Counted from the first letter of the stretch, positions 7,121 through 63,394 are shown. The stretch: 64,000 nucleotides of DNA from Thermoplasmatota archaeon (GCA_041659985.1 JBAZXE010000002.1:4714-68713); one strand, 5' to 3'. The notes: generated from the letters alone by a model not told the origin. Program-made: numbers and translations.

Positions 7121-7188
7121 TAACTGAAGTCGAACTCGATTTCAATTGACTTCGGCTTTCTGCTTAGTCCAGGCTGCGTATGCAATGT
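7121..7188 (-). other. 5' arm of the pre-23S processing helix
   Basis: Complementary to 4170-4247 (see that feature). Confidence 0.75.
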
Positions 7189-25840: not shown

Positions 25841-25905
25841 TCGCCCCGCTCCAACGCGGTCAGCGGCTTAAGAGTTCGTTGCGGGGCCGACGCACCACTG
25901 CGGAA

Positions 25906-30091: not shown

Positions 30092-30967
30092 ATGCCGTCC
30101 AACGAAGTCCTGCTGGAGGACGCGTCCATCGTGCTCGCGCTCCTCCTGCTGGAGGCCGTCCTGTCCTTCGACAACGCCGCCATCCTGGCGGCGATGGTGC
30201 GCAAGCTGCCCGTGCGGGACCGCCGCAAAGCCCTCCTGTACGGATTGGTGGGCGCCTACGGGTTGCGGTTCGCCGCCATCCTGCTGGCCTCCGTGCTCAT
30301 CGCCAACCCGATCCTCAAGGTCATCGGCGGCGGCTACCTGCTGTTCATCGGCCTTAGGCACTTCATCACGCTGGTGACGCACAAGCCACACGAGCACAAG
30401 GACCACGCCATCAAGACCGGGTTCCTCACCCGACTCGGCGTGCCCGCCCTGGTGGCGGTCATCGTCCAGATTGAACTGATCGACCTTGCTTTCGCCATCG
30501 ACCAGGTCATCGTCGCCGTCGCCTTCACGCCCAAGATCTGGCTCATTGTCATCGCGAGCTTCATCGGCATCCTGTTCCTGCGCCTTGCGGCCGCCTTGAT
30601 CGCCCGCGTCATGGATTGGCTCCCGCTGCTGGAGCACATGGCCTACGTCGCGGTGACCTACGTCGGCCTCAAGCTGGTCCTGCTGTACCCGGTCTCCTTC
30701 ATCAACGACGGCCACGGAATCCACGTGCCGACGCCGCTCAGCATCAGCATCACGATGGCGCTCTTCGTCATCCCCATCCTGGTGAAGCTGGTGTTCAACG
30801 TGCCCCGGAGTGTTCCGCAAGGGTCTCACGTGGCGACGACCGCGCCGGAGTCCCCTGCCCCCAAACCTGAACCCGGGCGCCTGCAGGCGGCCAACACCGA
30901 CGTGAAGGACGCCCCGCGTTACGTGGACGGCGTCCTGCAGCCGCCGCGCCCTCCCCCGGAACCTTGA
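30092..30967 (+). CDS. TerC-family integral membrane protein, copy 1
   Basis: LLLLEAVLSFDNAAILAAMV...GGGYLLFIGLRHF. The ATG directly abuts the queC stop (TGAATG). Confidence 0.8.
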   Translation: MPSNEVLLEDASIVLALLLLEAVLSFDNAAILAAMVRKLPVRDRRKALLYGLVGAYGLRFAAILLASVLIANPILKVIGGGYLLFIGLRHFITLVTHKPHEHKDHAIKTGFLTRLGVPALVAVIVQIELIDLAFAIDQVIVAVAFTPKIWLIVIASFIGILFLRLAAALIARVMDWLPLLEHMAYVAVTYVGLKLVLLYPVSFINDGHGIHVPTPLSISITMALFVIPILVKLVFNVPRSVPQGSHVATTAPESPAPKPEPGRLQAANTDVKDAPRYVDGVLQPPRPPPEP

Positions 30968-30980
30968 AACCCGACCCGCC

Positions 30981-31880
30981 GTGGCCGCAGCAATGGTGGA
31001 CCTGATTGGGGACATCGCCATCGTCGCCACGCTCGTGGTGCTCGAGGCCGTCCTGTCCTTCGACAACGCGGCCATCCTGACCGTCCTGTCGCGCCGCCTG
31101 CATGACCCTGCCCAGCGACGCCGGGCGCTGAACTACGGCTTGGCCATCGCCTACGTCCTGCGCGTCCTGGCCATCTTCGCCGCCGTCTTCCTCGTCCGCC
31201 AGCCTTTGTTCCTCGTTCTCGGCGGCGCATACCTCATCATCCTCGGCATCAAGCACTTCGTGGCGCTGGCCAAGAAGGGCGACGAGCACCTCACCGCCGA
31301 GCACAAACCCCTCCTGGCACGATTCGGGATGACGGCATTCGCCGCCGTCGTCGTGGAGATCGGGGTCATCGACCTCGTCTTCGCCCTCGACCAGGTCGTC
31401 GCCGCCGTCGGCTTCGTGCGCGGCCATGAGCACGCCACGGTCCTCATCGTCATCGCCGCGACGCTTGGCCTGCTCAGCCTGCGGGTTCTGGCGCCCTTCA
31501 TCGGCCGCCTCATGGACTGGCTTCCGCTGCTCGAGCACATGGCGTTCGTCGCCGTGGCGTTCGTGGGCACACTGATGGTGCTGGAGCACACCTCCATCGA
31601 CCACGGCCTGCAGCTTGTCGGCAACCCCGACGCAGAAGGAGCGCCGCATGTCCTGTTCCACCTGGAGAAGATGGTTAAGATTGCCATCACGTTGAGTCTG
31701 TTCCTGGTGCCGGTTGTCGTCAAGCTGGTGTTCAAGGTGCCCAGGAGCCACCCCGGCGTGCATGCCGCCGTCGAGGCGGACTTCGCAGCCGGCGCCCCGC
31801 ACCGCGGCGACGACGTCTTGCAGGGCGACCCGAAGCACCCCGGTCAGATGCTTCACGACGACCCTGGCCGCTCGCCTTAA
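30981..31880 (+). CDS. TerC-family integral membrane protein, copy 2
   Basis: LVVLEAVLSFDNAAILTVLS...GGAYLIILGIKHF. GTG start 13 nt after the copy-1 stop. Confidence 0.8.
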   Translation: MAAAMVDLIGDIAIVATLVVLEAVLSFDNAAILTVLSRRLHDPAQRRRALNYGLAIAYVLRVLAIFAAVFLVRQPLFLVLGGAYLIILGIKHFVALAKKGDEHLTAEHKPLLARFGMTAFAAVVVEIGVIDLVFALDQVVAAVGFVRGHEHATVLIVIAATLGLLSLRVLAPFIGRLMDWLPLLEHMAFVAVAFVGTLMVLEHTSIDHGLQLVGNPDAEGAPHVLFHLEKMVKIAITLSLFLVPVVVKLVFKVPRSHPGVHAAVEADFAAGAPHRGDDVLQGDPKHPGQMLHDDPGRSP

Positions 31881-34266: not shown

Positions 34267-34301
34267 CAATCCGGCGAATCGGTCGTCAATCCGGCGAATC
34301 A
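34267..34301. repeat. two perfect direct copies of the GATTCGCCGGATTGA box (half element)
   Basis: The coding (minus) strand reads TGATTCGCCGGATTGA-CGACC-GATTCGCCGGATTGA-GTTGGA-ATG. The TGA is the stop of the AhpD-like gene and the ATG is the lysE-family start. Confidence 0.85.
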
Positions 34302-39407: not shown

Positions 39408-39504
39408 GTTCAAGACGCCCTACGGCCTTGCTGGCCCGTGGCCCAGGCCGCGATGTCATCACGGTAGCCCGTTCCCTCCGGGGGCGGGCTGCAAGTGCCC
39501 CTTT

Positions 39505-39588
39505 GCCGACGTCGCCTAGTCCGGTTGGGCAGCGGTCTTGAAAACCGCCGCGCGCGAGCGTTCCCAGGTTCAAATCCTGGCGTCGGCG
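39505..39588 (+). tRNA. tRNA-Ser (UGA), class II
   Basis: GCCGACG..GCC-TAGTCCGGTTG-GGC-A-GCGGT-CTTGAAA-ACCGC-(15-nt variable arm)-CCAGG-TTCAAAT-CCTGG-CGTCGGC-G. Confidence 0.88.
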
Positions 39589-39696
39589 TCAGGGGCTTCG
39601 CCCCCGACACCCCTGGGGCGGCCCCGCGCTGCTGCGCAGCCGCCCTGCCTCGGCGCGAGCTTCGCGCGCCGGCAAATGCCCGAGATCGGCAGATCT

Positions 39697-40632
39697 ATGG
39701 ATCCGCGGGCGGCTCAATCGTTGTTGGCAGTCCCCGATTTTCAGACCCTGATGCGACCCGTGCTCGAAGTACTAGCTGATGGCAAAGAGCGCAAGAGTGG
39801 CGAGGTTTCGACGATGGTTGGCGACCGTCTGAATCTCTCGGAAGAGGATCGGGCACTTCGCCTGAAAACCGGTCAGACTATCCTTCTAAATCGAGTTGCA
39901 TGGGCCATTTTGTACTTGGTCAAGGCAGGGGCCGTGGAGCGCCCCAGGTATGCACACGTTCGAATCCTGGAACGAGGCCGTAAGCTATTGTCGAGTCCCG
40001 AACCCGTTCGCACCAAGTCCTTGGACAAGTTCGTCGAGTTTACTGCCTGGCGTAGTTCGGAAGCCGGCCCGACGTCGGCCGATGCCGTTGCCCAAACGCT
40101 GGCCACCTCCTCTTCGTCGCCTCAAGAGGATATCGAGCGTGGAATCGCAAGTCTAGAAAAAGTGCTGCAAGAAGACCTCCTCAAGCATTTACTCGAGGCA
40201 GACCCGGCCTTCTTTGAGCAAGTGGTTGTCGACATTCTGGAGGCAATGGGATATGCTGGCACTCGAGGCAGCGCCCAAACCCTCGGACGCACCGGCGACG
40301 GCGGCGTAGACGGTGTCGTGCACCAAGATGCATTGCAGCTGGACTCCGTTTTCGTGCAGGCAAAGCGTTACACGGGATCTGTTGGCGCTCCGGAAGTAAA
40401 CAACTTCATCGGCGCATTGGACCGAAAGCGGGCTGTGAAGGGTGTGCTGATGACGACCGGCACATTTTCGCGGCAAGCGGTCGAAGCCGCGCGTGAATCT
40501 TCACGCAAGGTCGTGCTGGTTGACGGCACCAAGCTGGCTGAACTCATGGTACGCCATGGCGTAGGCGTAAGCACGACGGCCACGTACAAGGTGCAACGCG
40601 TGGACACCGACTACTTTGAACCTGATCAATAG
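39697..40632 (+). CDS. mrr: Mrr-family type IV restriction endonuclease
   Basis: Mrr_N-like PDFQTLMRPVLEVLADGKERKSGEV, and catalytic core GDGGVDGVVHQDALQLDSVFVQAKRY...VKGVLMTTGTFS. Start is ATG 39697 or 39676. Confidence 0.88.
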   Translation: MDPRAAQSLLAVPDFQTLMRPVLEVLADGKERKSGEVSTMVGDRLNLSEEDRALRLKTGQTILLNRVAWAILYLVKAGAVERPRYAHVRILERGRKLLSSPEPVRTKSLDKFVEFTAWRSSEAGPTSADAVAQTLATSSSSPQEDIERGIASLEKVLQEDLLKHLLEADPAFFEQVVVDILEAMGYAGTRGSAQTLGRTGDGGVDGVVHQDALQLDSVFVQAKRYTGSVGAPEVNNFIGALDRKRAVKGVLMTTGTFSRQAVEAARESSRKVVLVDGTKLAELMVRHGVGVSTTATYKVQRVDTDYFEPDQ

Positions 40633-41460: not shown

Positions 41461-41778
41461 TTGTCCGTGGCCCGCTCCCTCGTCTCCGGCCTCTTCCGGT
41501 ACGGGGAGTCCGAGTTGGACCCGGTCATCCATTCCGAGATCCTCTTGGAGTCAGCGCGCAGCGAGGCGCGCGTGGCCATCCTCATCATCGCCGTGGCGCT
41601 CGGCTTCGCGCTGTACTACCGGTTCCAGGGAACGACGGTGGCGGCGACCAGCCTCTTCGCGCTCATCACCGTCATCCCGCTCCTCTTCGACGCCCAGTTG
41701 CGCCGCGCGGCGGCCAAACGGGTGCGCGGCAAGGGCCCGCAGCTTCCGCCGCGCATGCGCCAGCAAATGCCGCGCTGA
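41461..41778 (+). CDS. small membrane protein, unknown function
   Basis: Two TM helices (VAILIIAVALGFALYY, LFALITVIPLLF). TTG/GTG start. Weak call. Confidence 0.35.
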   Translation: MSVARSLVSGLFRYGESELDPVIHSEILLESARSEARVAILIIAVALGFALYYRFQGTTVAATSLFALITVIPLLFDAQLRRAAAKRVRGKGPQLPPRMRQQMPR

Positions 41779-41784
41779 AGCGCA

Positions 41785-41903
41785 GATTTCACGGATTGCC
41801 CTCCGGGCACTCGCCGCTTTGGATTCCGCAGATTAGGGGAACTCCACAATCTGTGGAATCAGGTCCGCATGACGGCCCGGAGGGAGCGGGAATCTGTGGA
41901 ATC
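41785..41903. repeat. nested inverted repeats, GATTCCGCAGATT variant of the box family
   Basis: GATTTCACGGATT 41785, GCCCTCCGGGC 41798, GATTCCGCAGATT 41822 / AATCTGTGGAATC 41848, CCCGGAGGG 41876, AATCTGTGGAATC 41891. It lies between convergent gene ends. Confidence 0.7.
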
Positions 41904-41908
41904 CGCGC

Positions 41909-42349
41909 TCAGAACGGACCCGACGCCGCGCCCATCAAGGCCAAGCGGCGGCCGTTCTCGCGGCTGACGACGACGGTGAGGCCGGATTTCTGGCACTCCG
42001 ACTGCAGGGTCCGGTCGTTGGTCACGACGACGGCCTTGGCCTTGCGGGCGACCTCGAGCAAGCCGTCGTCGCCGGGGAGCTTGGTCTGCAGAATCTCGCA
42101 ACGCTCGGCGAACTTGAGGGCCATTTTGGCGTGGCGCGCCACGGCGCCCTTGCCCTTGAAGGCCAGCGTGCCGAGTTCGATGAGCACGGTGGACGGTACG
42201 AGCAGTTTGACGCTGCCGAAGAGGTGCGCCAGGTCTTCCTCGACGCGCGTCCCGTGCGCGAAGGGCAGGATGAGCGCGTTGGTGTCGAAGACGACGGGCG
42301 TGGGGGCGTCCGCGTTTGCCGGCTTCGCGTCGCCCGCCATCGTGCTCAC
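41909..42349 (-). CDS. PIN-domain protein (Fcf1/Utp24-like, COG1412 type)
   Basis: VVFDTNALILP...LVPSTVLIEL...VVTNDRTLQ. There is a 4-nt overlap with eif2g. Confidence 0.8.
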   Translation of the reverse strand: MSTMAGDAKPANADAPTPVVFDTNALILPFAHGTRVEEDLAHLFGSVKLLVPSTVLIELGTLAFKGKGAVARHAKMALKFAERCEILQTKLPGDDGLLEVARKAKAVVVTNDRTLQSECQKSGLTVVVSRENGRRLALMGAASGPF

Positions 42350-43650
42350 TTCAGGATGCCGTAGCCGATGAGGCGCCAGCGGCCACCGACGCGGCGGCTG
42401 ATGGCGATGCGCGACGCGCCTTCGCTGGCGATGGGCAGCTTGAGGGCAGCCTCGACGGTGTCGTTGGACGCCTTGAGCACGAGACCGACCGTGGTGGCGG
42501 TGCCGGCATTGAGCATGAGCGGCTCCTTGACCTTGATGGGCTCGACGGCCGCCTCGTCCTCGGCGCCGACGACGCGTTCCAGGAGGGTGACCTGCATGGT
42601 GATGCGGTCGAGGGTCTTGGGGAGCTTGCCCGGGTGGCCCAGCACGCGGCCGACGAGGTTGTCCGCCTTCGTGATGGAGGGGTCAAGCTCGGTGCCGATG
42701 GCGATGAGGCCGCCGGGGCCCGCCTTGTCGACCGCCTGGTCGCCGATGAAGAGGCTGGTGATCTTCGTCCTGAGCGGGACGTAGGTGGCCTTGTCCTCCT
42801 TCTCGACGCGCAGGCCGGGCATGATCTCGATCTCGTCGCCGACGCGCAGGCTGCCCTTGCTTAGGGAGCCGCCGAGGACGCCGCCGCGCAGCTTGTCCGG
42901 GCGGGTGCCGGGGCGGTTGATGTCGAAGGAGCGCGCGACCAAGAGGAGGGGGTCTGCCTTGGGGTCGTGCGTCGGCGTCGGGATGACGCGCTGGATGGCC
43001 TCGATGAGGGCCGAGATGTTGACGTCGTGGTGCGCCGAGATGGGGATGACCGGGGCCTTCTCGGCAACGGTGCCCTTGACGAACGCCTGGATTTCCTTGT
43101 AGTTCTCCATGGCGCGCTTCTCGTCCACGAGGTCAATCTTGTTTTGGACGATAACGATGTTCTTGGCGCCGGCAATCTGCAGCGCCATGAGGTGCTCGCG
43201 CGTCTGCGGCTGCGGGCACTTCTCGTTGGCGGCGACCAAGAGAAGGGCGCCGTCCATGAGGGCCGCGCCGGAGAGCATGGTGGCCATCAGGGTCTCGTGG
43301 CCGGGGGCGTCGACGAACGACACGCGGCGCAACTTGCTCGGCTCGCCAACGAGGCGGGCGTCGTCCTTCTTCGTCGTGAAGAGCGCCTTGCCGTCCTTGT
43401 CCTTGCCGGAGAAGAACGTCGTGTCGGCGTAGCCCAGCTTGATGCTGATGCCGCGCTTGATTTCCTCGGAGTGGACGTCGGTCCAGACGCCGGAGAGCGC
43501 CTTGGTCAAGGTCGTCTTGCCGTGGTCGACGTGGCCGATGAGGCCGATGTTGGCCTCGGGCTGCTCGAAGGCCTCGCCCTTGCCGGCGCCGGCGTCCGCC
43601 TTGGACTTGGGCGCCTGCACGGTCTCGGTCGTTGCCTTCTTTGCCGCCAC
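42346..43650 (-). CDS. eif2g: translation initiation factor aIF-2 gamma
   Basis: NIGLIGHVDHGKTTLTKALSG...FVDAPGHE...VQNKIDL. GTG start. Confidence 0.95.
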   Translation of the reverse strand: MAAKKATTETVQAPKSKADAGAGKGEAFEQPEANIGLIGHVDHGKTTLTKALSGVWTDVHSEEIKRGISIKLGYADTTFFSGKDKDGKALFTTKKDDARLVGEPSKLRRVSFVDAPGHETLMATMLSGAALMDGALLLVAANEKCPQPQTREHLMALQIAGAKNIVIVQNKIDLVDEKRAMENYKEIQAFVKGTVAEKAPVIPISAHHDVNISALIEAIQRVIPTPTHDPKADPLLLVARSFDINRPGTRPDKLRGGVLGGSLSKGSLRVGDEIEIMPGLRVEKEDKATYVPLRTKITSLFIGDQAVDKAGPGGLIAIGTELDPSITKADNLVGRVLGHPGKLPKTLDRITMQVTLLERVVGAEDEAAVEPIKVKEPLMLNAGTATTVGLVLKASNDTVEAALKLPIASEGASRIAISRRVGGRWRLIGYGILK

Positions 43651-43700
43651 GGTTTTCGGCAGGCCGGGCTTCGGTTAAAGGGTTCGCTGCCCTCCTGTAG

Positions 43701-43774
43701 GATTGGCCGGATGGCCAGGATTTGCCGGATGGAGTGGACCCAATCCGCCAAATCGGGCCAAATTCGGCAAATCA
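43701..43774. repeat. four-box GATT/AATC dyad element
   Basis: GATTGGCCGGATG 43701 and GATTTGCCGGATG 43719, then AATCCGCCAAATC 43742 and AATTCGGCAAATC 43761. The last box contains the stop (43772-74) of the 32-codon ORF. Confidence 0.8.
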
Positions 43775-43873
43775 GAGGGCCAGGATGAGTTGCGCAGCGG
43801 CGAGCACGCCGACCATCACGGCGATGGTCAGGGTCAGCTCGCCCCGCGACGGGGCGTCGGCAGAGCGGGGCAT
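43772..43873 (-). CDS. candidate 32-aa single-TM micro-protein
   Basis: Too short for the ORF track. ATG 43873: MPRSADAPSRGELTLTIAVMVGVLAAAQLILAL*. Nearly all codons end in G/C, like real genes here. Confidence 0.35.
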   Translation of the reverse strand: MPRSADAPSRGELTLTIAVMVGVLAAAQLILAL

Positions 43874-43934
43874 GAGCGATGCACGTCAGCCGTGAGTATA
43901 TGGGCGGTTTCGGGCAAGACTCGAACGGACCAGC

Positions 43935-44026
43935 GAATTCGCCGGATTGTTGATTCGATTTGCCGGATTGCCTTGCTGCCGCTAGGTCTTGTCAATCCGT
44001 CGAATCCCGGAAAATCCGGCGAATCC
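43935..44026. repeat. four-box GATT/AATC dyad element
   Basis: AATTCGCCGGATT 43936 and GATTTGCCGGATT 43957, then AATCCGTCGAATC 43994 and AATCCGGCGAATC 44013. It ends 9 nt from the rps6e stop. Confidence 0.8.
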
Positions 44027-44033
44027 GAGGGGC

Positions 44034-44438
44034 TTACTTCTTCTCAGCCGGGGCCAGGCTGGCGAAGTGCTCGCCGACGGGCTTGCTGCCGGCCTTGGCG
44101 ACCTTCAGGTTGACCTGGATAATCTCGGCCGAGACGCGGTTGCCGCGGACGGATTGGCGCTTGCGGCGACCGGGGGCGTTGATCGGGTGGTAGCCGACGC
44201 CCTCGGTGAGGAGCAGGCGGCGGCGGGTGGTGCCCTCGAAGTCGGCGCGCATCGGGAAACCGGCCTTGTCGGAGCCGCCCGTGATCTGCAGCTTGTAGCC
44301 GGGCAGGTTGGCGTTGATGCCGTCGACTTGGTCGCCGATCTTCTTGTTGAGGAAGTTCTGGGCGTGGTGGCCGGTCACTTCGAAGTTGAAGGACTTGCCA
44401 GTCGCGGGGTCGTTGATGACGAGCTTGAAGGTGGCCAT
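44034..44438 (-). CDS. rps6e: 30S ribosomal protein eS6
   Basis: Trimmed to MATFKLVINDPATGKSFNFEV...GYKLQITGGSDKAGFPMR. Confidence 0.92.
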   Translation of the reverse strand: MATFKLVINDPATGKSFNFEVTGHHAQNFLNKKIGDQVDGINANLPGYKLQITGGSDKAGFPMRADFEGTTRRRLLLTEGVGYHPINAPGRRKRQSVRGNRVSAEIIQVNLKVAKAGSKPVGEHFASLAPAEKK

Positions 44439-44554
44439 GGGGTCAACTCGCTCCAGGTATTCCGTAGGTTCGTGAGGGGCCTCGCGGATGCGAAACCCCT
44501 TCGAGCCCACAGTTCACCATAGGCGTCTGGAGCAATCCGTCCGACGAGGGGGTC

Positions 44555-45406
44555 CTATATGATGGTGACGGGCGCCGCAACAGGAGTGTCTTCCTCGACG
44601 GGGCCTAGCGCCTCTCCGGGCCAATGCACCCGTGCCGACGGCAGGTCGTACTGCGCATACTCGAACGTCGCAACACCTTGCGTCGTCCCCAACACTGCGG
44701 CGACCCAGGATTCCGGGCTGACGGTCCACGTGCCGACGCCAGTGGCTGCGGTGCGGTTGACGCGCTCGGAGTCCCAAAGGGCGAAGTCGCGGGCGCCGAC
44801 CGTGATGGTGCGAGCTTCGAAGCCATCGGCGGGTTGCGCATCGCCCGTGAGTCGCCCGGTCAGCGAGAAGGCGCCGACTTGGTCGAGGGCGAATGAACCG
44901 GTCCAGCCTTGCGCCGACGGGCCGACGAAGGAGCCTCCGTCGCGCACGGGAAGGTCCCACGGCTTGGCCAGCAAGCGCCAGGAATCGGAGGCGACGAGGA
45001 GGTCCCATCCGTATTCGTAGTGCGCCGAGAAGCGTTCCTCGCGCAGCGCGGCTGGCGGCAAGACCGGTGTGAAGAGGATGCCCGACTGGAGGGAACGCAG
45101 GACGTTCTCTTCACCGAAACCGTAGGCGCATTCCACGGCGCGGAAGCCGAGAGTCGCGGCGCCAGCGAGGGCCGGGGAGGATTCGGGCGGGCTGGGCTCG
45201 AAGCCGGAGGGAAGGTAGGGTTGCAGCGTGGCGGCCGTGACGGGGACCGACCAGGTGATTGATTCGCAGTCTTCCTGCCCCCAGTCAAGGACCCGCGCGG
45301 GTTGCGCCACGCCTTCCGTTGAAGGCAACGGAGACGGTTCCGGCGCCGTGGGCTGCGCGCAGCCAGCCAGCAAGGCCACGACCAGCAGCATCGCGGCGCG
45401 GCGCAT
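44555..45406 (-). CDS. lipoprotein of unknown function (paralog family member 2)
   Basis: Trimmed to MRRAAMLLVVALLAGCAQP. Motifs EDCESITWSV...YLPSGFEPSPP...GFRAVECAYG. Confidence 0.7.
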   Translation of the reverse strand: MRRAAMLLVVALLAGCAQPTAPEPSPLPSTEGVAQPARVLDWGQEDCESITWSVPVTAATLQPYLPSGFEPSPPESSPALAGAATLGFRAVECAYGFGEENVLRSLQSGILFTPVLPPAALREERFSAHYEYGWDLLVASDSWRLLAKPWDLPVRDGGSFVGPSAQGWTGSFALDQVGAFSLTGRLTGDAQPADGFEARTITVGARDFALWDSERVNRTAATGVGTWTVSPESWVAAVLGTTQGVATFEYAQYDLPSARVHWPGEALGPVEEDTPVAAPVTII

Positions 45407-45467
45407 GGCGTGGCCCAGCCGCGGGACCGACGTAAGCGAATTGCCGGAACCGGCCGGGTGCATGCCG

Positions 45468-46226
45468 TCATCGCCGTTGGCCAGGACTTGACGTTTGTGG
45501 CGGCGACGCGCGGGTCCGCGACTCCCCGAGGGCGCGCGGCCGGCCGGCGGTCTTGGTCGCCGCCGCGGCCACGCCCTGGTGGGCCTCGAGGATGCCGGCG
45601 AAGCGCTGCATGGCGTGCTGCTCGGCCTTGCGCAGGTGCTCCTCGAACGTTGAGCGGGCCAATCCGACCCGCGTGGCCAACTCGCGGGCCTCCACCTTGC
45701 GCGGGACGTCGTAGTATCCGGTGCGGACGGCCAGTTGCAAGGCTTCGAGTTGCCGGCGCGTCAGGCCGGCGGCCAAGTCCGCGACCGGGACCACGGCTCC
45801 GACGGAGTCGTTGGGCACATCGGAGGCCGCCTGCAACAGGGTCGTGCCGAAACGCCCGAGGCGGCGCACGAGGACGCGCAGCCGCGCCTCGGTGGGCGCG
45901 AGGATGGCGTACTGTTCCCAGCCGTCGCGGTAGACGGCGGGCCATAAGATGGTGCAACCCGCCGCCAGGATCGTCGGGATGACGCCAATTGGCGGGTTGC
46001 GCGTGCGTACGAGGGCGGAATTCGCTGTGCGGCCCATGACGTCGAACGGCGTGAGGCCGTCGGATTCGATGTGGCGCACCACGCGTTCGACTTCGGCGGG
46101 TTCGCCTTGCACGAGCACGAGGTCGCATTCCTCATCGGAGGAGACCTGCATGGCGACCGTTCCAGGGCGCAGGCTCGTCATGAGACAGCCGTCGTGCTGG
46201 ACCCGCAGGTCCGCCTTGACCACCAT
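45468..46226 (-). CDS. HTH_10 (Bat-like) transcriptional regulator
   Basis: Trimmed to ATG 46226. C-terminus LTRRQLEALQLAVRTGYYDVPRKVEARELATRVGLARSTFEEHLRKAE. Confidence 0.8.
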   Translation of the reverse strand: MVVKADLRVQHDGCLMTSLRPGTVAMQVSSDEECDLVLVQGEPAEVERVVRHIESDGLTPFDVMGRTANSALVRTRNPPIGVIPTILAAGCTILWPAVYRDGWEQYAILAPTEARLRVLVRRLGRFGTTLLQAASDVPNDSVGAVVPVADLAAGLTRRQLEALQLAVRTGYYDVPRKVEARELATRVGLARSTFEEHLRKAEQHAMQRFAGILEAHQGVAAAATKTAGRPRALGESRTRASPPQTSSPGQRR

Positions 46227-46291
46227 GGCCTGGCTACGCCCGTGCAGGCTTCTTGAGCGCTGTGTTGGACGGACTCGCAGCTGCGCGGCGG

Positions 46292-47143
46292 TCAGGCCGA
46301 GCGTGCCGCGCGGCGGCGACGCAGCATGGGGCGGAGGTACCAGATGGCCATGCCGCCAACGTAGAGCGCCCAGACGGCAAGGTCGAGGACGGCGGGCGTG
46401 GCGCGGTAGCCGAGGACGCCGTAGAGCAGGCCTCCGGCAACACAGTTGACCGTCACGTTGTCGCCGCACTTGTGCGGAAGGAAGCCGCTCCAGTCCCACG
46501 CCTGCGGTGTCTCGGGCACCCAACCGACCTCTTCGCCTTCGTGGGCCGCGTAGCCCAGCATGCCGCCCGCCACCAGGATAAGGAAGACGCCGGTGACGGC
46601 GAAGAATCCCTGGACGCTGAGCTTGACGGTGCCACGGAAGAGCAGGAAGGCCAGCACGGCACTGATGGCGATGCCAACGAGGAGACCCAGCAGGATCTCG
46701 GCGGGCGTCGCTTGGCCGGCCTGGGCGGCGATGAAGACCACGGTTTCAAGACCCTCGCGGACCACGATGACGAAGGCGAGACCGAGGAGGACGGAGGAAC
46801 GGCCGGCAAGGACGGCGTCCTTCGCCTTGGCGTGCAGGGTCCCCATCGCGTGCTGGGTGTGTTTGTACATCCAGACAATCATGTAGGTCAGAATGAGGAC
46901 GGCGAGGGCGCTGGCGGCGGCCTCGAAGGCGGCGCCGAAATCCTCGGAGAGTTGGTCGGCGAGGCGGTAGGTCAGCACGCCCACCGCGATTGACACGGCC
47001 ACACCGAGCAGGCCGCCGATGAGGATGGACCGGCGGGCTTCAGGGTGGCCGAGTTTGACGACGATGCCCGCGAGGATGCCGCAGACCAGCAGGGCCTCGA
47101 GGGATTCGCGCAGGGCGACAATAGCGATGCCAGCGAAGGACAT
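46292..47143 (-). CDS. FTR1/EfeU-family iron permease
   Basis: Trimmed to MSFAGIAIVALRESLEALLV (REXLE 1), with a second motif VVREGLETVVF. Confidence 0.88.
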   Translation of the reverse strand: MSFAGIAIVALRESLEALLVCGILAGIVVKLGHPEARRSILIGGLLGVAVSIAVGVLTYRLADQLSEDFGAAFEAAASALAVLILTYMIVWMYKHTQHAMGTLHAKAKDAVLAGRSSVLLGLAFVIVVREGLETVVFIAAQAGQATPAEILLGLLVGIAISAVLAFLLFRGTVKLSVQGFFAVTGVFLILVAGGMLGYAAHEGEEVGWVPETPQAWDWSGFLPHKCGDNVTVNCVAGGLLYGVLGYRATPAVLDLAVWALYVGGMAIWYLRPMLRRRRAARSA

Positions 47144-47210
47144 TTCGGGGCCTCGAAATCGCCGAGGAGAGAACCCTACTTGAATCTTAGGGGAGCCGAA
47201 ATCAGCATTG

Positions 47211-47307
47211 GATTCGCCGGATTGTTCCTTGATTCGCCGGAACGGTTTTCTCCCTTGGACCGAGCCCCAATTCAATCCGGCCAATCGTTTGGCAATCCGT
47301 TGAATCA
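47211..47307. repeat. four-box GATT/AATC dyad element, stop-codon anchored
   Basis: GATTCGCCGGATT 47211 and GATTCGCCGGAAC 47231, then AATCCGGCCAATC 47274 and AATCCGTTGAATC 47294, both pairs with 20-nt spacing. The coding strand of the DtxR-like gene ends CAC TGA TTCAACGGATT. Confidence 0.85.
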
Positions 47308-47760
47308 GTGGGGGTGAATCTGTTCCCTTACTTTGCGGGTGGTGTCGAACTTGTGGCCGAGGCGTTCGTTGAGGAAGCCTTCACACCACGCCTCCAGTTC
47401 CTTGGGCAGGGTGTGCTCCATGTCGCAGGCGGCCTCGTGCGCGGCCCCGTGGTCCATGCCGCAGACTTCCTGCAGGAACGCCTGCATGATGCGGTGCTTC
47501 TCCAGCGTGCGTTTTCCGACGGCGCGGCCGGAAGCCGTGAGGACCACGCCCTTGTACGGCTCGTATGTGACGTGTCCGGCCTTCTCCAGTTTCTGGATCA
47601 TGTCGGTGACGGACGGTGGCGCGACCTTCAGGTGCTTGGCGATCTCGCCGGTGCGCGCCGGTTCCCCCGCTTCCTCCAGGCGGTAGATGGTCTCCAGGTA
47701 CTCCTGCATCTGCTCGGAGACCGTGTGGTGCGACACCAAGCCCACCGAGGAGTTCGGCAT
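47305..47760 (-). CDS. DtxR/IdeR/MntR-family metal-dependent repressor
   Basis: Trimmed to ATG 47760. YLETIYRLEEAGEPARTGEIAKHLKVAPPSVTDMIQKLEKAGHV...AACDMEH. Confidence 0.9.
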   Translation of the reverse strand: MPNSSVGLVSHHTVSEQMQEYLETIYRLEEAGEPARTGEIAKHLKVAPPSVTDMIQKLEKAGHVTYEPYKGVVLTASGRAVGKRTLEKHRIMQAFLQEVCGMDHGAAHEAACDMEHTLPKELEAWCEGFLNERLGHKFDTTRKVREQIHPH

Positions 47761-47781
47761 ACCTAATCCTGACGCCCTGCG

Positions 47782-47850
47782 GATTCGCCGGAGTTCAGCG
47801 AGATTTGACGGATTCCTCAATCCGCAAATCGATTCAGAATCCGGAAATCA
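47782..47850. repeat. four-box GATT/AATC dyad element, stop-codon anchored
   Basis: GATTCGCCGGAGT 47782 and GATTTGACGGATT 47802, then AATCCGCAAATC 47819 and AATCCGGAAATC 47838. The ACAD coding strand ends CCC TGA TTTCCGGATT. Confidence 0.85.
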
Positions 47851-49005
47851 GGGTGTGGCTGGGAACGTGATGTCCGGCATGACGGCGCGCTTGATCACGT
47901 CGCGCTGCATCTGAGTCGTCTCGCCGACGAACCACAGCGCGCGCGAATCGCGGGCGAAGCGCTCCGTGCCGCCTTCGCGCATGAAGCCGGTGCCGCCCTG
48001 GATGCGGATGGCCTGCCGCGTCATGGGGACCGCCATCTCATTGGCGAACGCCTTGGCGCGGGCAGCCCACAACAGGCCGTCGTCGGCTTCAAGGTGGGCG
48101 GCCGCCGCCAGCGTGAGGGCGAGGCTGGCCTCGACGTTGACGTCGATGAGGGTGATGCCGTCGGAGACCGCCTGGTACGTCCCGATGGGCGAACCGAACT
48201 GGATGCGTGTGGCCGCGAAGGCGGCCGCGGCCGCATAGGCGCCCGCCACGCAGCCCGTGATGGCGGCCGCGGCGGCGACCTGCAACCAGGCGCGCGAGGA
48301 GCGCAGGAGGTCGAATCCTTTGCCGACCTCGCCGAGGCGGTGTGCGTCGGGCACGACGACACCCGAGAAGTAGACGGTGCGGATTCCTGCACCGCGCAAA
48401 CCCATGAGGGGTTCGTTGCGGCCGAGAGAGACACCCGTAGCGTCAGCCGGGACGTACAACAACGTGGGGCCCGATGGGTTGCCCTTGCCGGCCTGCACGT
48501 TGGCAAGGACGACGAAGTGCTTGGCATCCGAGGCGGCGATGCCCCAGACCTTCTGGCCAGTGACCTTGAACCCGACCTTGTCGGGCACGGCCATGGTGCC
48601 GATGCTTCCGGCGTCGGAGCCGTGCGCCTCCTCCGTCGCCAGGACGGCCACCAGTTCGCCTGCGGCGGCCTTGGGGGCCAGTTCGGCGGCGACCGCGGGG
48701 TTGGCGAGAAGGCAGCGCAGGCCGAGGCCGTTGTGGACGGCGAGAATGGCCGCGGTGTTCGGGCAGACCTTGGCGAGTTCGTGGACCGCTAAGGCGTAGG
48801 CCGTCGGGCCCGCGCCGGCTCCGCCAAGCTCGGTGGGGAGTGTGAGGGCGGTGAGCCCGAGACCCGCGGCGGCTTGGATGACGTCGGCGGGGAAGCGGTC
48901 ATTGCGATCGAAGTCGGAGGCCTGCTCGAGCCCGATGGTGGCCGTGGCGAACTCGCTTACGACCTTGCGGATCAACTGCTCATCGTCGGAGAGCGTGTAC
49001 GGCAT
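47848..49005 (-). CDS. acyl-CoA dehydrogenase
   Basis: Full-length ACAD pattern: ...ATEEAHGSDAGS...GQKVWGIA...IQGGTGFMRE...RDSRALWFVGETTQMQ. Confidence 0.9.
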   Translation of the reverse strand: MPYTLSDDEQLIRKVVSEFATATIGLEQASDFDRNDRFPADVIQAAAGLGLTALTLPTELGGAGAGPTAYALAVHELAKVCPNTAAILAVHNGLGLRCLLANPAVAAELAPKAAAGELVAVLATEEAHGSDAGSIGTMAVPDKVGFKVTGQKVWGIAASDAKHFVVLANVQAGKGNPSGPTLLYVPADATGVSLGRNEPLMGLRGAGIRTVYFSGVVVPDAHRLGEVGKGFDLLRSSRAWLQVAAAAAITGCVAGAYAAAAAFAATRIQFGSPIGTYQAVSDGITLIDVNVEASLALTLAAAAHLEADDGLLWAARAKAFANEMAVPMTRQAIRIQGGTGFMREGGTERFARDSRALWFVGETTQMQRDVIKRAVMPDITFPATP

Positions 49006-52325: not shown

Positions 52326-52431
52326 GCGCGGTGGACCCGGTGCGCCCGGGATGAAGGCTTCGCCGCACGGCTATCGACCCGCGCCACGGGCCGTAATTTC
52401 AAGCCGATGCTTTGCAAGGGCCAAGCCCTGA

Positions 52432-52737
52432 CTAGGATTTGTCGCCTATGTTTCGGAAGTAGAAGACGACGACAGCGCCGGTGAGGCTGCCAAAGACGGC
52501 CCCTACCGCGTTGAGCAGCGAAACCGCATCGGTCCCGACGGTGCGTCCTTGCAGGAGGCCCCAGAGTGCCACGGCCACGGTCGCGACAATGCACAACACG
52601 AAGGCTGTAACAATCAGATACGCGAGCACAGACTGCGTGCGAGGGGACGGCCCCCGGTATTCGTTGGTGCGCTCATCGACTTCTTCCCGCCAGTCAACGG
52701 ATGCGGGTTCGGCATCAGATTTGGGTTTGGATACCAT
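52432..52737 (-). CDS. small two-TM membrane protein
   Basis: VLAYLIVTAFVLCIVATVAVALWGLL and AVGAVFGSLTGAVVVFYF. Lower-GC codons. Confidence 0.45.
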   Translation of the reverse strand: MVSKPKSDAEPASVDWREEVDERTNEYRGPSPRTQSVLAYLIVTAFVLCIVATVAVALWGLLQGRTVGTDAVSLLNAVGAVFGSLTGAVVVFYFRNIGDKS

Positions 52738-52832
52738 GCGATCACCATTGGAAGAAGGAGGAGGCGGGTTTCAGCCGAAACACCAGATGGACAGGTCAAA
52801 TCGCTGAAGACCCCGTAGGTCGTTGTCCGCTC

Positions 52833-53099
52833 CTACATGATAACGTGCAATTCTTTGCCGTCGGGCTTGTTGCCTTGAATTACAATCTCTTTTGAGCCTT
52901 TCAAGGCGCGAGCCAGTAGGAGTTCGCGTGCAATTGCACGGCGAACCGCTTCGGACGTTGTGGAGGCGCCAAGGAGGAGTCGCAATTCCTCGAGGTCCTC
53001 CACAAAGGCCTCCGATGCGGGGACTTTGATTACTGAAGTCAAAATAAACACCACAATACGAAGCGAAATCCTTGACGGCCGCCGAGCGCGATGACTCAA
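52833..53099 (-). CDS. ribbon-helix-helix (CopG/Arc-like) protein, tentative
   Basis: VIKVPASEAFVEDLEELRLLLGASTTSEAVRRAIAREL fits the strand-helix-helix pattern. The start is uncertain (a GTG/TTG inside the ORF is possible). Low-GC region. Confidence 0.45.
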   Translation of the reverse strand: MSHRARRPSRISLRIVVFILTSVIKVPASEAFVEDLEELRLLLGASTTSEAVRRAIARELLLARALKGSKEIVIQGNKPDGKELHVIM

Positions 53100-53213
53100 G
53101 GTGGGTTTGTCGGGCCGTCATGAATTTCACGTTCTAGCCGACGACTCGTAGTCGAGTTCGGTCAGGTATTGTGCGGGTGTGTCGGGTTGCCATGTGTGTC
53201 AGGTCTCCAGAAA

Positions 53214-53285
53214 GGCACATTTCTGTGCCAAATCCGTATTGTCTTCTGGCCTTATTAAGGCTATCTAATGGCCATTTATTGGCCA
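53214..53285. promoter_or_regulatory. operator-like palindrome plus A/T-rich boxes upstream of etfB
   Basis: GGCACA-TTTC-TGTGCC at 53214-53229, then GGCCTTATTAAGGC / ATGGCCATTTATTGGCC (53247-53285), 60-130 nt upstream of the etfB ATG. Confidence 0.4.
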
Positions 53286-55007: not shown

Positions 55008-55802
55008 GTGCAATCCTGTGCTGTGCGAGCGTGGACTGTTGCCGTGGCCGGGCTTTGTTTGGCCCTTGCGTCGAGCGGGTGTCTTGGCTCCGGCGGCGGC
55101 CTGTTCGGCGACCAGCCAGGCCCGCGTGATTTCGTCTCCAGTGCCGACTACACCAAGTGGGTCATCGAAGTGGACTTCGTCCAGGGCCAGGCCCCACCTG
55201 CAGGCGTCCTCGATTTCGTGAAGGGACGCCTGGCTGCGGTCGTCGACAAGCCGGACGGGATCGAGGTGCGCATCGACGAGACGCTCCCCACCCGCGGCGG
55301 GACATGGACGCAGAACGACCTGTTGGACCTCAGTGACGCGCACTTCCAGGCCGACACGTCGGGGAAAACGGCCGCCATCCACCTGCTGTTTGTGGACGGC
55401 TCCTACGACCAGGCCAACGTCCTGGGCGCTACCTTCAGCCGGGAGAGTGCCACCGGCCAAGTGGTCTCGACTGGCCCCATCGTCATTTTCTCGCAAGCCA
55501 TCCGCGACGGCTGCGGCCCAATCTGCCTTAGCGGCACGACGCCGGCGTTCCGCTCGGTCATCGTCCATGAATTCGGCCATGCCATCGGCCTCGTCGACAA
55601 CGGCATCGCCATGGTGCGCCCGCATGAGGCATCCACTTGCGGGAATCCGCCCCGGCCCGACGAGGGACACTCCTCGAACAGCGAATCCGTGATGAATTGC
55701 GACGTCGAGACCAGCGGCATTTTCAACCTGGCCAATGAGCCACCGACGGAGTTCGACTCCAATGACAAGGCCGACTTGTGCGCCGCCGGCGGTCGCTGCT
55801 GA
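55008..55802 (+). CDS. lipoprotein with a metzincin-type zinc site (HEFGHAIGLVD)
   Basis: GTG 55008/55023. Signal VAVAGLCLALASSGC. HEFGHAIGLVDNG = HExxHxxGxxD (snapalysin-like third ligand). Several Cys. Confidence 0.65.
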   Translation: MQSCAVRAWTVAVAGLCLALASSGCLGSGGGLFGDQPGPRDFVSSADYTKWVIEVDFVQGQAPPAGVLDFVKGRLAAVVDKPDGIEVRIDETLPTRGGTWTQNDLLDLSDAHFQADTSGKTAAIHLLFVDGSYDQANVLGATFSRESATGQVVSTGPIVIFSQAIRDGCGPICLSGTTPAFRSVIVHEFGHAIGLVDNGIAMVRPHEASTCGNPPRPDEGHSSNSESVMNCDVETSGIFNLANEPPTEFDSNDKADLCAAGGRC

Positions 55803-55897
55803 TTCGCCGGATTCGCCGAGGATTTGGCGGATAATGGAGCAGTCTTGGCCAACCGACGCAGCCGAATCCCTCGAATCGAGTTGAAATCCGGCAAATC
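55800..55897. repeat. four-box GATT/AATC dyad element, stop-codon anchored (plus-strand gene)
   Basis: TGATTCGCCGGATT, where TGA 55800-02 is the metzincin stop. Boxes at 55801 and 55821, then AATCCCTCGAATC 55865 and AATCCGGCAAATC 55885, with 20-nt spacings. It ends 12 nt before the next GTG start. Confidence 0.85.
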
Positions 55898-58418: not shown

Positions 58419-59741
58419 ATGAACGTCCGGGTCAGCCTGACTCTGCTGGTCGCCGCCCTCTTCATGGTGGCGGTGCCGGTGCAAGCGCAGCTTTCGAATC
58501 CCCAGCAGTCGACGCCGACGAAGCTGTACTTCCACATCTTTGACACGTTCAACGCATTCCCCATCAACACGCAGCCGATGGACGTCGAGTTCTTCGAGGT
58601 CGGCGGCACCAACTTCCCCACCGCGTCCAACACCATCGTGTCCCAGCAGATTGGCGACTACGACTTCAACACCATCCGCGGCTTCTCAACTTCCGGTCCC
58701 GTCGAGTACGACTTCATCGAGAACGGCCGCCCGCGCTTCCACCCGGAACGCGGCATCGCCGCCGATGTCCAAGTGGATTCCGCCGTGCAACCCGTCGTCT
58801 ACCTCTACATGGATGTCCGTGACCTGTTCAGCACGGATGCCAGCGATCCGCAGGTCGGGTTGCCCCAGGCCCTGCCTTCCTTCACGTTCCGCGTCACCAT
58901 GCGCACCGGCAACGACATCGGTCCCGACTCCGACCTCGACGCCGGGAAACTGCTGATGTCGGGCCAGAAAACGGCGCACGTCGTCGACACGCACGCCGCC
59001 GGACAGAACAGCATTTTCGCTGGCCAGAACGCCCCCGATGGCACGCCCATCTTCGTCCCCGACGAGTCCGGCGTCGTCGAGTTCGCCATCCCGCTCACCG
59101 TGGATGACCCGGTCATCCCCAAGGCCGACGCCTACAACATCCGCATCGACTGGTACCAGAACCCGAGCAACGACCCGGCCCAGGACGACACCATGGCGGA
59201 AGGCTGGATGCGCCTCGTATCCGACGCCGCTCACCTGCCCCGCATGGAGCTGGCCATCACCAACCCGGTGTACATCGAGTACATCCACCCCGAGGTCGCC
59301 GCCGGCATCCTCCTGATCCACTCCTGCGTCAACTCGCCATGGGGCACGTACGACGTCGATGTCGCCAACATCACCGTCGCCGTCCAAGGCCCCAGCACGC
59401 CGCAGACGCTGCAGCAGGTCATCTCGCAGAACTCTCACGTGCACGGTCTGCACGACAAGTGCGCCGAGGTCACCTACCTGTGGCGCTTCCGCGACGAGGA
59501 CGCCAAGAACGGCCAATACGACATCACGCTGGACGTGCCCAACGTCGGCAAGCTGGCCGTCGCAAGCGGCCAGGCCGGCTTCACCGTTGAGGGCAAGAAG
59601 GCCTTCGGCATCGACGAGGGCGGCGAGGTCGTCGAACCCACCGTCACCGAGGGCGACAAGAAATCGCCCCTACCTGTCGCGCCCGCCATCGCCCTCCTGA
59701 TCGTCGCCTTGGCGGCCTTCGCCCGGAGGCGTTCGTCGTGA
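58419..59741 (+). CDS. secreted protein with a C-terminal TM/basic anchor, unknown function
   Basis: Trimmed to MNVRVSLTLLVAALFMVAVPVQAQ. C-terminus KKSPLPVAPAIALLIVALAAFARRRSS. Confidence 0.65.
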   Translation: MNVRVSLTLLVAALFMVAVPVQAQLSNPQQSTPTKLYFHIFDTFNAFPINTQPMDVEFFEVGGTNFPTASNTIVSQQIGDYDFNTIRGFSTSGPVEYDFIENGRPRFHPERGIAADVQVDSAVQPVVYLYMDVRDLFSTDASDPQVGLPQALPSFTFRVTMRTGNDIGPDSDLDAGKLLMSGQKTAHVVDTHAAGQNSIFAGQNAPDGTPIFVPDESGVVEFAIPLTVDDPVIPKADAYNIRIDWYQNPSNDPAQDDTMAEGWMRLVSDAAHLPRMELAITNPVYIEYIHPEVAAGILLIHSCVNSPWGTYDVDVANITVAVQGPSTPQTLQQVISQNSHVHGLHDKCAEVTYLWRFRDEDAKNGQYDITLDVPNVGKLAVASGQAGFTVEGKKAFGIDEGGEVVEPTVTEGDKKSPLPVAPAIALLIVALAAFARRRSS

Positions 59742-60685
59742 AGGCCTTCCTCGCGGTCGCCCTCCTGTCCAGCCTGGCCTTGGCCGGCTGCTCGGGCGGC
59801 GGCGACGGAGACGGCCCGTCGTCCAGTAGCACCAGCACAACTGGACCCCTCAAGTCGGGCAAGGGCGCCATCAGCGGCCTCCTCATCAACGACGTCTTCC
59901 GCCCCGTCCCCGGCGGCCTCGTCCTCATCCAGGAACTTGGTCTCACGGCGACGTCGGATGCCTCCGGCCAATTTGCCTTCCTCGACCTCGAACCCGGCTC
60001 CTATCTGCTGCGCGTGCAAGCGGATGGTCACGAAGCGGCGCCGCAGACCGTCGACGTGAACGAGGGCGAATACACGGAAACCGAACTCATGGCGCGCCGC
60101 GTCTTCAACGAAGGCGGCCGCATCGTGACGACTGAGTACTCCGTGTTCGTTCCGTGCGCTGCCAGCGTTCCAGTGGCATCAAGCACGGTCGATTGCACCT
60201 TCGACCAGTCGGGCGACTCCTTCCGCGCCGGCTTCACCAGCAACTTCACTGCAGGCTACTCCGGCATCACCTATCTGATCACCGAGATGAAGGCGAACAA
60301 GCCGGCCAGCCCCACCAGCGGCGCGTACAAGATTGTGGTGCGCGAGGAGGGCGACGGCGACTACTGGGCCAGCGCGTTCACCATCGACTCCGACTACATC
60401 CGGGTCACGATGCGCTTGGGCAACATCTCAACCGACGACACCGAAAACGGCCGCAACGTGGCCTGGGAGAACAACAAGCCCATGGAGACTGCGTTCTTCC
60501 CGCAAGGCCAGTTCAAGGGTGAGACCCAGATGGGCTACGATACCCTCTGCACGGTTCCTGAAGCTTGCCTGTTCGGGGAGTCCCGCGGCGTGGGTGGCCA
60601 AGTCGGCGTCCGCGCCAAGTTCGTCCAGAGCCTCTTCCTCGGCGAGCCCGAGGTCGACATCACGACCTACTGCGTGCTGTGTTGA
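59738..60685 (+). CDS. lipoprotein with a carboxypeptidase-regulatory-like domain, tandem paralog A
   Basis: The GTG overlaps the upstream stop (GTGA). LALAGCSGG...GAISGLLINDVFRPVPGGLVLIQELGLTATSDASGQFAFLDLEPGSYLLRV...YCVLC*. Confidence 0.75.
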   Translation: MKAFLAVALLSSLALAGCSGGGDGDGPSSSSTSTTGPLKSGKGAISGLLINDVFRPVPGGLVLIQELGLTATSDASGQFAFLDLEPGSYLLRVQADGHEAAPQTVDVNEGEYTETELMARRVFNEGGRIVTTEYSVFVPCAASVPVASSTVDCTFDQSGDSFRAGFTSNFTAGYSGITYLITEMKANKPASPTSGAYKIVVREEGDGDYWASAFTIDSDYIRVTMRLGNISTDDTENGRNVAWENNKPMETAFFPQGQFKGETQMGYDTLCTVPEACLFGESRGVGGQVGVRAKFVQSLFLGEPEVDITTYCVLC

Positions 60686-60686
60686 C

Positions 60687-63310: not shown

Positions 63311-63380
63311 CCCAAACAGGGATTGCGGGAAGAATGGGGAATTTGCAGTCGTCCCCGGGGCTCCCCGTAATCCCTGTTTG
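63311..63380. repeat. long imperfect hairpin between convergent genes
   Basis: CCAAACAGGGATT 63311-63323 is the exact reverse complement of AATCCCTGTTTGG 63367-63379. Further pairing (CGGG, GGGGA) follows toward a ~11-nt loop. Confidence 0.7.
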
Positions 63381-63394
63381 GTCGTCGTTCCGCG

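Follow-up and report, generated by a model that had tools for sequence, protein, structure and literature searches.

Which process has placed copies of a short, phased repeat at the ends of genes in this archaeal genome, and what do these copies do there? The question is raised by positions 43701 to 44026 of a 64-kb stretch of Thermoplasmatota DNA (hereafter the window, meaning the whole stretch of 64,000 nucleotides), where two four-box elements lie between rps6e and eif2g. The initial annotation, made from the sequence alone, had described dispersed dyads of two forward boxes followed by two reverse-complement boxes, anchored to stop codons. This description of phased boxes, dyad design and stop anchoring proved accurate, and every coordinate given for it was present in the sequence. 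The further remark that the elements were not recognized as any described archaeal class is likewise borne out, since Rfam returned no match at the elements, either with gathering thresholds on the whole window or at E ≤ 1 on positions 41700-47900, and a literature search found the 13-mer box in no published paper.

The elements are strongly non-random, lie at gene 3' ends, are often fused to a TGA codon and have only their boxes conserved. When matches to GATTYGCCGGATT were counted at two mismatches or fewer, 31 were observed in the window against 2.9 expected, a number reached in none of 100 shuffles. Similarly, a position matrix derived from 40 paired boxes scored 12 arms of two boxes in the window and 0.0 in the shuffles, and GATT-N5-GATT occurred 22 times where about one occurrence was expected. 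We placed the boxes on a gene map derived from codon usage, which was in agreement with JGI calls (3300037810 Ga0376277_0002277, 32-53 kb) and with Pfam results. On this map, 24 of the 31 boxes were intergenic, in a window whose intergenic share is 12.5% (p = 2e-16). As the initial annotation had supposed, the 13-mer is thus not as frequent inside the genes of the window as between them. The claim that all copies are intergenic was too broad, as one pair of boxes (E9) lies inside the longest open reading frame of a HAD hydrolase gene and isolated near-matches with one or two mismatches are found within genes (e.g., at 61156, 21427, 54804 and 63211). The top enriched intergenic words of the window are 7-mers derived from the box, which makes it the most enriched intergenic motif, and there are about 10 element loci in its 64 kb.

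The box consensus is 13 bp long and reads (G)GATT-YGCCG-GATT. According to the position matrix, both GATT cores are nearly invariant, box positions 4, 6 and 12 are looser, and the information content is zero beyond positions 0-12. Two boxes in direct orientation form an arm, with 18 to 21 bp (mode, 19-20) from start to start, and an arm can stand alone or be joined to a second one in an inverted dimer (→→ loop ←←), 70-100 bp long. Seven such dimers were identified, namely E3 to E8 and one further copy at positions 5301-5386 of locus L088. The spacers within arms (5-8 nt) and the loops between arms (4-31 nt) are unrelated in sequence from copy to copy. One way to read this geometry, which we consider unlikely, is that of a host cis-element on double-stranded DNA, in which a box pair would bind a sequence-specific protein that marks gene 3' ends and would act as an insulator, a roadblock-type terminator or a chromatin anchor. 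The boxes lie two helical turns apart, with their GATT cores about 10 bp apart on one face; the spacing is rigid within arms and free between them; it is the sequence, above all that of the GATT cores, and not the pairing that is conserved; and the prominence of the box among the intergenic motifs also fits a host signal. The evidence on the other side comes from gene context and from relatives and is given below.

Two complete dyads lie around the rps6e-eIF2-gamma spacer. E4 (43701-43773) occupies the space between a 33-aa open reading frame (43772-43873, minus strand) and the eIF2-gamma promoter; its boxes, at 43701-43713 and 43719-43731 (plus) and at 43742-43754 and 43761-43773 (minus), are separated by a loop of 10 nt, and the last box has GA in common with the TGA stop at 43772-43774. 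E5 (43936-44025), with boxes at 43936-43948 and 43957-43969 (plus) and at 43994-44006 and 44013-44025 (minus) and a 24-nt loop, begins 8 nt past the TAA stop of rps6e (44034-44036). Further dyads of four boxes were confirmed at E6 (47211-47306; loop, 30 nt) and E8 (55801-55897; loop, 31 nt). E6 lies 3' of an Fe-dependent repressor gene (47305-47760, minus strand), and its box at 47294-47306 is fused to the TGA stop of this gene at 47305-47307. E8 lies 3' of a gene for a 247-aa protein (55059-55802, plus strand), its box at 55801-55813 is fused to the TGA stop at 55800-55802, and 12 nt separate the end of its last box from the GTG start of the next gene. The element E7 (47782-47850; loop, 4 nt), 3' of an acyl-CoA dehydrogenase gene (47848-49005, minus strand), has the four boxes that had been reported, but only those at 47782-47794 and 47802-47814 (plus) are 13 nt long, those at 47819-47830 and 47838-47849 (minus) being 12-nt boxes; the last one is fused to the TGA stop at 47848-47850. 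Between E6 and E7, just upstream of the DtxR-like repressor gene, lies a sequence that is conserved in relatives (AGGATTAGGT / AGAGTTAGGT; window 47761-47781, and 5940-5965 in relative L002). Its resemblance to half an iron box suggests autoregulation.

The remaining elements depart from the complete design. E1 (11060-11127), which had been listed as another four-box copy, has a good stop-side arm on the minus strand (boxes 11114-11126 and 11094-11106), which is fused to a response-regulator gene at its TGA stop (11125-11127), but its far arm (11060-11090) is degenerate. E2 (34268-34300, minus strand) is a half element of two perfect direct boxes 20 bp apart from start to start, and it fills the 39-nt spacer between a CMD-family gene, to whose TGA (34299-34301) it is fused, and the start of LysE at 34259. 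E3 (41785-41903) is a variant dyad between two convergent genes (41461-41778, plus, and 41909-42349, minus, the latter encoding a PIN protein); it consists of the boxes GATTTCACGGATT and GATTCCGCAGATT and two reverse copies of GATTCCACAGATT, and its spacers pair too. This element uses a second box family, GATTCCRCAGATT, which is also represented by the variant half box TGATTCCGCAG at 25898-25908 (minus strand), fused to the TGA stop of a HAD hydrolase gene at 25906. With the consensus GATTCCRCAG(ATT), this second family has four copies in the window (41822-41903 and 25898-25908) against 0.3 expected, and it is also found in relatives, at 11770-11830 of L001, which is the orthologous site, and at 3330-3390 of L019. 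Of the half or variant copies claimed previously, those at 34268-34300, at 41785 and at 25898 were therefore retained, but the one at 28468 shows loose GATT phasing and is not a box. A pair that had been missed is E9 (26471-26504, plus strand), two direct boxes 21 bp apart that are reversed in orientation relative to the flanking minus-strand genes. It falls within the first 46 codons of the longest HAD hydrolase reading frame and ends 10 nt upstream of a likely GTG start, so that it is probably located upstream of the true start of this gene.

Several features of the window are separate from the box elements. An rRNA operon on the minus strand comprises 16S, tRNA-Ala, 23S and 5S genes, and long inverted repeats (4173-4228 / 7131-7186 and 7484-7544 / 9123-9183) bracket the 23S and 16S genes, presumably as processing stems. 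The space between two convergent genes contains, at 63312-63385, a near-perfect inverted repeat of 19 nt (CCAAACAGGGATTGCGGGG / CCCCGTAATCCCTGTTTGG). Two tandem paralogous gene pairs were noted (59738-61592 and 30092-31880), one of which includes a 300-nt stretch that is 88% identical. Finally, the gaps at 10582-11124 and 52326-53278 contain neither a confident open reading frame nor an Rfam hit, and the second has a lower GC content than its surroundings.

The relation of the elements to stop codons is exact. Of the 15 stop-proximal arms, which come from four genomes, 10 have a first box whose initial base coincides with base 2 of the in-frame TGA upstream (offset −1), and the other five start 5-8 nt past the stop. 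Within the window, E1, E2, E4, E6, E7 and E8 begin at TGA base 2, and the first boxes of E3 and E5 come 6-8 nt after the stop; the fusions reported previously at seven stops (11125, 25906, 34299, 43772, 47305, 47848 and 55800) were all confirmed. Every element lies downstream of at least one gene, in a tandem or convergent spacer, and none was found in the approximately nine divergent spacers. The distance from the element to the next start codon is variable (9 to about 70 nt). Where a TATA-like element is visible (eIF2-gamma and the 33-aa reading frame), it is located beyond the element and is conserved in relatives. The upstream genes are functionally unrelated, encoding rps6e, a 33-aa membrane peptide, a DtxR-like repressor, an acyl-CoA dehydrogenase, a CMD-family protein and a response regulator. 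Selenocysteine insertion or read-through at the fused UGA was rejected because in relatives these proteins terminate at an identical codon position, with either TAG or TGA. It matters for the annotation of such metagenome-assembled genomes (MAGs) that boxes create TGA stops and can fall inside gene calls that are too long at their N termini.

The bases at the junction bear on the question of whether the elements are classical MITEs, that is, insertion-sequence derivatives that have inverted repeats at their termini and target TGA or CTGA. The four bases preceding the 'TT' of the outer boxes are CTGA in 10 of 17 cases and CGGA in 3, hence CKGA in 13 of 17, which suggests a tag or target at the junction, but one that is inseparable from the stop codon effect, since a C ahead of TGA is also what GC3 bias predicts. 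Inverted arms, small size, presence or absence at orthologous sites and expansion in one lineage would all suit a MITE, as would the MITE-like palindromes of Dehalococcoidia described below, which share the GGATT phasing and have true terminal repeats in addition. Nevertheless, we regard a classical MITE as very unlikely: although the insertions are young, no internal sequence is common to the copies, half elements whose boxes are perfect occur frequently, the junctions show no visible target-site duplication, and none of the loci read contains a full-length insertion sequence with these ends.

We then considered the elements as RNA. The dyads fold at −27 to −64 kcal/mol, with z-scores of −1.5 to −6.2; E5 reaches −44.4 kcal/mol (z = −6.2) and E3 −64.5 kcal/mol (z = −5.3). 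They fold as single-stranded DNA also; a single two-box arm in this form gives only −3.9 kcal/mol (z = −0.2). As RNA, the two direct boxes of an arm can pair antiparallel in the sense strand at 12 of 13 positions, including four G-U pairs (−8.7 to −11.4 kcal/mol), whereas antisense pairing reaches 7.3 of 13. This sense-only wobble pairing fits the orientation of the half elements, most of which are sense-oriented behind stops (7 versus 1). On such grounds the elements could be 3'-UTR elements acting at the RNA level, selected for their structure or for the binding of an RNA-binding protein, with a hairpin that starts at the stop codon and ends or stabilizes the transcript or meets the terminating ribosome. 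This explanation accounts best for the single-base anchoring, because only translation "knows" the position of the stop. Hairpin-terminated transcripts are known in Haloferax volcanii (PMC7237163), and several relatives have a hairpin of another sequence at the end of rps6e.

These hairpins were seen in relatives that lack boxes, immediately 3' of the rps6e stop, and are unrelated to the element (L001, 7455-7640; L128, 9603-9640; L110, 1532-1560; L002, 9636-9740; L113, 9253-9330). The one in L001 consists of three tandem copies of about 84 nt each, and the motif CTCTAGG or CTCTAGA then follows most of them, L110 being the exception. Structure may therefore be useful at some genes.

Despite this, we judge selection at the RNA level improbable. 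The initial annotation had suggested testing the fold for covariation; the dyads do fold, yet paired boxes show none, their identity being 10.75/13 against 10.92/13 for unpaired boxes. Mismatches in paired boxes comprise 8 G-U in sense, 8 in antisense and 11 others. Likewise, the pairing of direct boxes shows no covariation (11.29 pairs within arms versus 11.30 between arms). No U-tract or T-run follows the dyad stem, and half elements have no partner arm. Furthermore, a stem would need no sequence identity across copies. The box-free 3' flanks do not tend to fold either (mean z = −0.03, n = 25), which indicates an organism without a general need for 3' hairpins. We thus reject pairing as the cause of the conservation of the box sequence, and the 3'-end or mRNA-stability hairpin proposed at first survives only as a possible secondary effect, its role in conservation being contradicted by the missing covariation, the missing U-tract and the half elements. 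Reading CUGAUU as a C/D box or K-turn was dismissed on inspection, the arms being fully complementary.

The age and origin of the elements were assessed on the syntenic stretch around eIF2-gamma in 11 relatives (4-21 kb each, 79-95% protein identity). In alignments with L110, L001, L002 and L003, the elements E4, E5, E6 and E7 appeared as extra DNA relative to the orthologous sites, and in the element-free relatives the flanks could still be aligned and the upstream protein ended at the same codon (TAG or TGA). E4 is missing at the orthologous site of L110, L001 and L002, and E7 is missing in L002 and L003, both of which use TAG at the same codon position. At the E5 site, L110 has a different hairpin and CAZXUC01 two perfect boxes, and in the E2 spacer L001 has two boxes, but with another spacer sequence and offset, and L002 has none. 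The window's copy of the syntenic stretch carries about 22 boxes at six element sites, against zero to one strong arm in each of the 11 relatives. Indeed, the position matrix found no arm in nine of them, one strong arm in L112 and one weak arm in L111; the two boxes of L001 are 26 bp apart and thus outside the range of the arm scan. A strong box pair is present in just 2 of the 11 relatives, CAZXUC01 (a perfect pair right after the rps6e stop) and L001 (in the E2 spacer). Since E4 to E7 are absent from comparable relatives in which the position of the stop is unchanged, and since pairs are found in only 2 of 11, the elements are young inserted DNA with a patchy distribution. The low divergence at 4-fold sites in eIF2-gamma (0.23 for L110 and 0.18 for L001) also indicates that the insertions are young, and it is comparable with the roughly one mismatch per box that neutral decay would give. 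As judged from these alignments, the tested elements E4 to E7 are inserted DNA gained recently in the lineage of this organism.

In the same set of relatives, the slot beside the tRNA-Ser and His_Phos genes is a defence islet of variable content: an Mrr-like nuclease in the window (39504-40632), GmrSD in L003 (14577-16400), DpnI in L128 (14191-14967), DpnI_C/HNH in L001 (12959-14083) and L125 (13058-14200), and Dcm, Vsr and MutH in L002 (13179-15671) and L126 (12837-15272).

The young copies nevertheless differ in their spacers and loops, which argues against a single master copy and for a pool of sequences with the boxes alone in common. No parent and daughter copies with matching spacers were seen. 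No direct repeat that could be a target-site duplication was visible at the junctions of E4 to E8, where the empty sites come from species that are about 8-9% divergent in eIF2-gamma and about 17% over the aligned region. A GATTCG duplication that seemed to be present at E5 was discounted, as it is missing from other relatives. Among the three roles put forward initially, a MITE-like element with a preference for TGA targets was the best fit in that the insertions are absent from close relatives, but the sharing of boxes alone and the lack of a visible target duplication do not agree with a classical MITE. An array for a DNA-bending protein is still conceivable, but its sites are not conserved between species. 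The same pattern weighs against a double-stranded DNA mark: the sites are not shared between species and come as insertions of 70-100 bp, a roadblock on a stop codon would be expected to stall RNA polymerase before the stop is transcribed, and E2 sits in an operon-like spacer with no room for a promoter. In its favor, different lineages have boxes at the same two places, 3' of rps6e and in the CMD-LysE spacer, which could equally reflect a host function and counts against the repeat-family reading proposed below.

For the wider distribution, the DNA read comprised the window, as the 64 kb available from the element-rich genome, together with six loci of 8 kb each from other MAGs that carry boxes. 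The same consensus, spacing and TGA fusion were found in CAZXUC01 and in two Thermoplasmatota MAGs from Hainich H32, at other genes, the upstream ones encoding COX2, arginase, an HTH protein and a pLGIC-like protein. A scan of a genome collection yielded at least six archaeal loci, and among the matches listed there were mostly bacterial coding (GATTCGCCG)n repeats. In a metagenome scan, five short, uninformative contigs were recovered, and a viral scan gave coding repeats and one lambda-like bacterial phage. No transposase was found among the annotated genes of the window or the box-bearing loci, and no RAYT, DDE or recombinase partner gene in the 64-kb window and the loci read.

Phased GATT cores were also observed in bacterial repeats. 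The Dehalococcoidia MAGs OY762251.1 (L011, L017, L036, L064, L069, L073 and L081) and OY763072.1 (L022, L038 and L067) contain many palindromic repeats of about 110 nt with (A)ATCGTCAGAAGCAG as their ends and with varying loops and intervening bases, whose arms have four GGATT cores at a period of 9-10 nt; some copies lie 5-8 nt past a stop codon. In Lewinella CAZLEF01 (L014, L031, L033, L066, L070 and L096), a repeat of about 125 nt bounded by TTATACC...GGTATAA has seven phased GATT cores on one side. GGATT-phased arms thus occur in MITE-like repeats elsewhere, their kinship to the archaeal family being unproven.

We propose, with about an even chance of being right, that the elements are a REP/BIME-like family of non-autonomous repeats, in which the boxes are candidate recognition sites for a protein and which would be transcribed as a 3' hairpin, without being REPs, MITEs or attC sites in the strict sense. 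According to this proposal, a transposase- or recombinase-like protein, acting in trans from a gene located elsewhere in the genome, would recognize the boxes and spread arms or dimers from a diverse pool. As propagation would require nothing but the boxes, spacers and loops would be free to drift. Insertion or retention would put the first box flush with the stop, T followed by GATT giving TGA, much as GTAG-tagged REPs supply TAG, and insertions would survive just in the short strip between the stop codon and the next promoter. There, the elements are predicted to be transcribed within the 3' UTR of the upstream gene, where a dimer would form a long hairpin; as a by-product, the elements may influence RNA stability or the 3' end.

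Several observations count against the REP/BIME-like proposal: no partner gene, visible target-site duplication or parent-daughter pair of copies was found in the DNA read, and no rule for REPs or MITEs would demand a fusion to the stop that is exact to the base. Alternatively, the boxes would be a non-selfish, stop-anchored signal in a clade of uncultured Thermoplasmatota, read on mRNA or DNA by a sequence-specific factor that would link translation termination to the formation of transcript 3' ends or to insulation. On mRNA, the signal would be the wobble hairpin of the sense strand or the box pair, with its start at UGA base 2. We consider such a signal rather unlikely; if true, archaea would have a gene-end signal that is defined by its sequence and dependent on a protein, a kind not known from them. 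ORB origin sites, uptake sequences and CRISPR-like arrays were ruled out by reasoning from copy number, intergenic placement and 20-bp pairing.

How, then, does this family compare with known systems? An attC site is an imperfect palindrome directly after an open reading frame, often overlapping its stop codon, with two boxes per arm. The archaeal elements share the stop overlap, the two boxes per arm with an unpaired spacer and the variable center. However, they have no match to RYYYAAC/GTTRRRY, their boxes are direct and not inverted within an arm, and no intI gene was found in the loci read. The neighboring genes (rps6e, eIF2-gamma, ACAD and the DtxR-like gene) are housekeeping genes with conserved synteny in element-free relatives and are therefore not cassettes.

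MITEs, Correia and ERIC elements and the modular BOX elements of pneumococci are short, non-coding inverted-repeat insertions that are co-transcribed with their neighbors. The archaeal family resembles them in a copy number that differs sharply between relatives, but it has no conserved internal sequence, no visible target-site duplication and no cognate insertion sequence in the loci read; the first of these differences sets it apart from classical MITEs, and the second may do so too. It is similar to the Dehalococcoidia repeats (OY762251 and OY763072) in its inverted GATT-N5-GATT arms, its variable loop and the conservation of the GGATT cores alone, and some copies of the latter contain the identical 13-mer GATTTGCCGGATT. 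Unlike the archaeal elements, the Dehalococcoidia repeats have abutting boxes, four GATT cores per arm and an extra terminal repeat of 11-15 nt, their anchoring to stops is inconsistent, and their hosts are bacteria.

Among archaeal gene-end signals, hairpins and AGATC have been described in H. volcanii, where a hairpin terminated 59% of transcripts (PMC7237163). Like these signals and oligo-T terminators, the elements lie just 3' of stops and have the potential to form hairpins, but they differ in having a conserved primary sequence, no T-run and no covariation, and in serving a minority of genes.

The closest likeness is to REP elements, GTAG- and CGTC-tagged repeats mobilized by RAYT Y1 transposases. 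To our knowledge, REP/BIME-type repeats are well studied in bacteria and barely documented in archaea. REPs are found mostly between unidirectional and convergent open reading frames, no more than about 20 bp from where the upstream frame ends and at a variable distance from the next gene, and their termini often supply the stop codon (PMC3733652). Moreover, copies annotated within N termini are probably extragenic (PMC3733652). This bacterial precedent for stop-supplying termini had been missed by the initial annotation. The archaeal family is in good agreement with it: it is high-copy, largely extragenic and specific to a species or lineage, occurs both as singletons and as inverted dimers, resides in tandem or convergent spacers near the upstream 3' end, where it supplies the stop, and has in E9 a copy at an annotated N terminus that is probably extragenic. 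It differs in that its ends are (G/T)GATT, with no GTAG or CGTC in the position matrix, that its unit consists of a direct pair of 13-bp boxes instead of a self-complementary stem-loop, that its spacers and loops are free, that its host is an archaeon and that no RAYT gene was seen in the loci read. Two defining features of REPs thus fail, the tag and the folding of the single arm as single-stranded DNA. Even so, the family offers a clean archaeal case, in which four 13-bp boxes are the sole conserved part, activity is recent and the fusion to the stop is exact to a single base. If a partner protein is found, it would provide a tractable system for how repeats spread and why they come to rest at gene ends; if the boxes are a host signal instead, they would define a new sequence-specific mark of gene ends in archaea.
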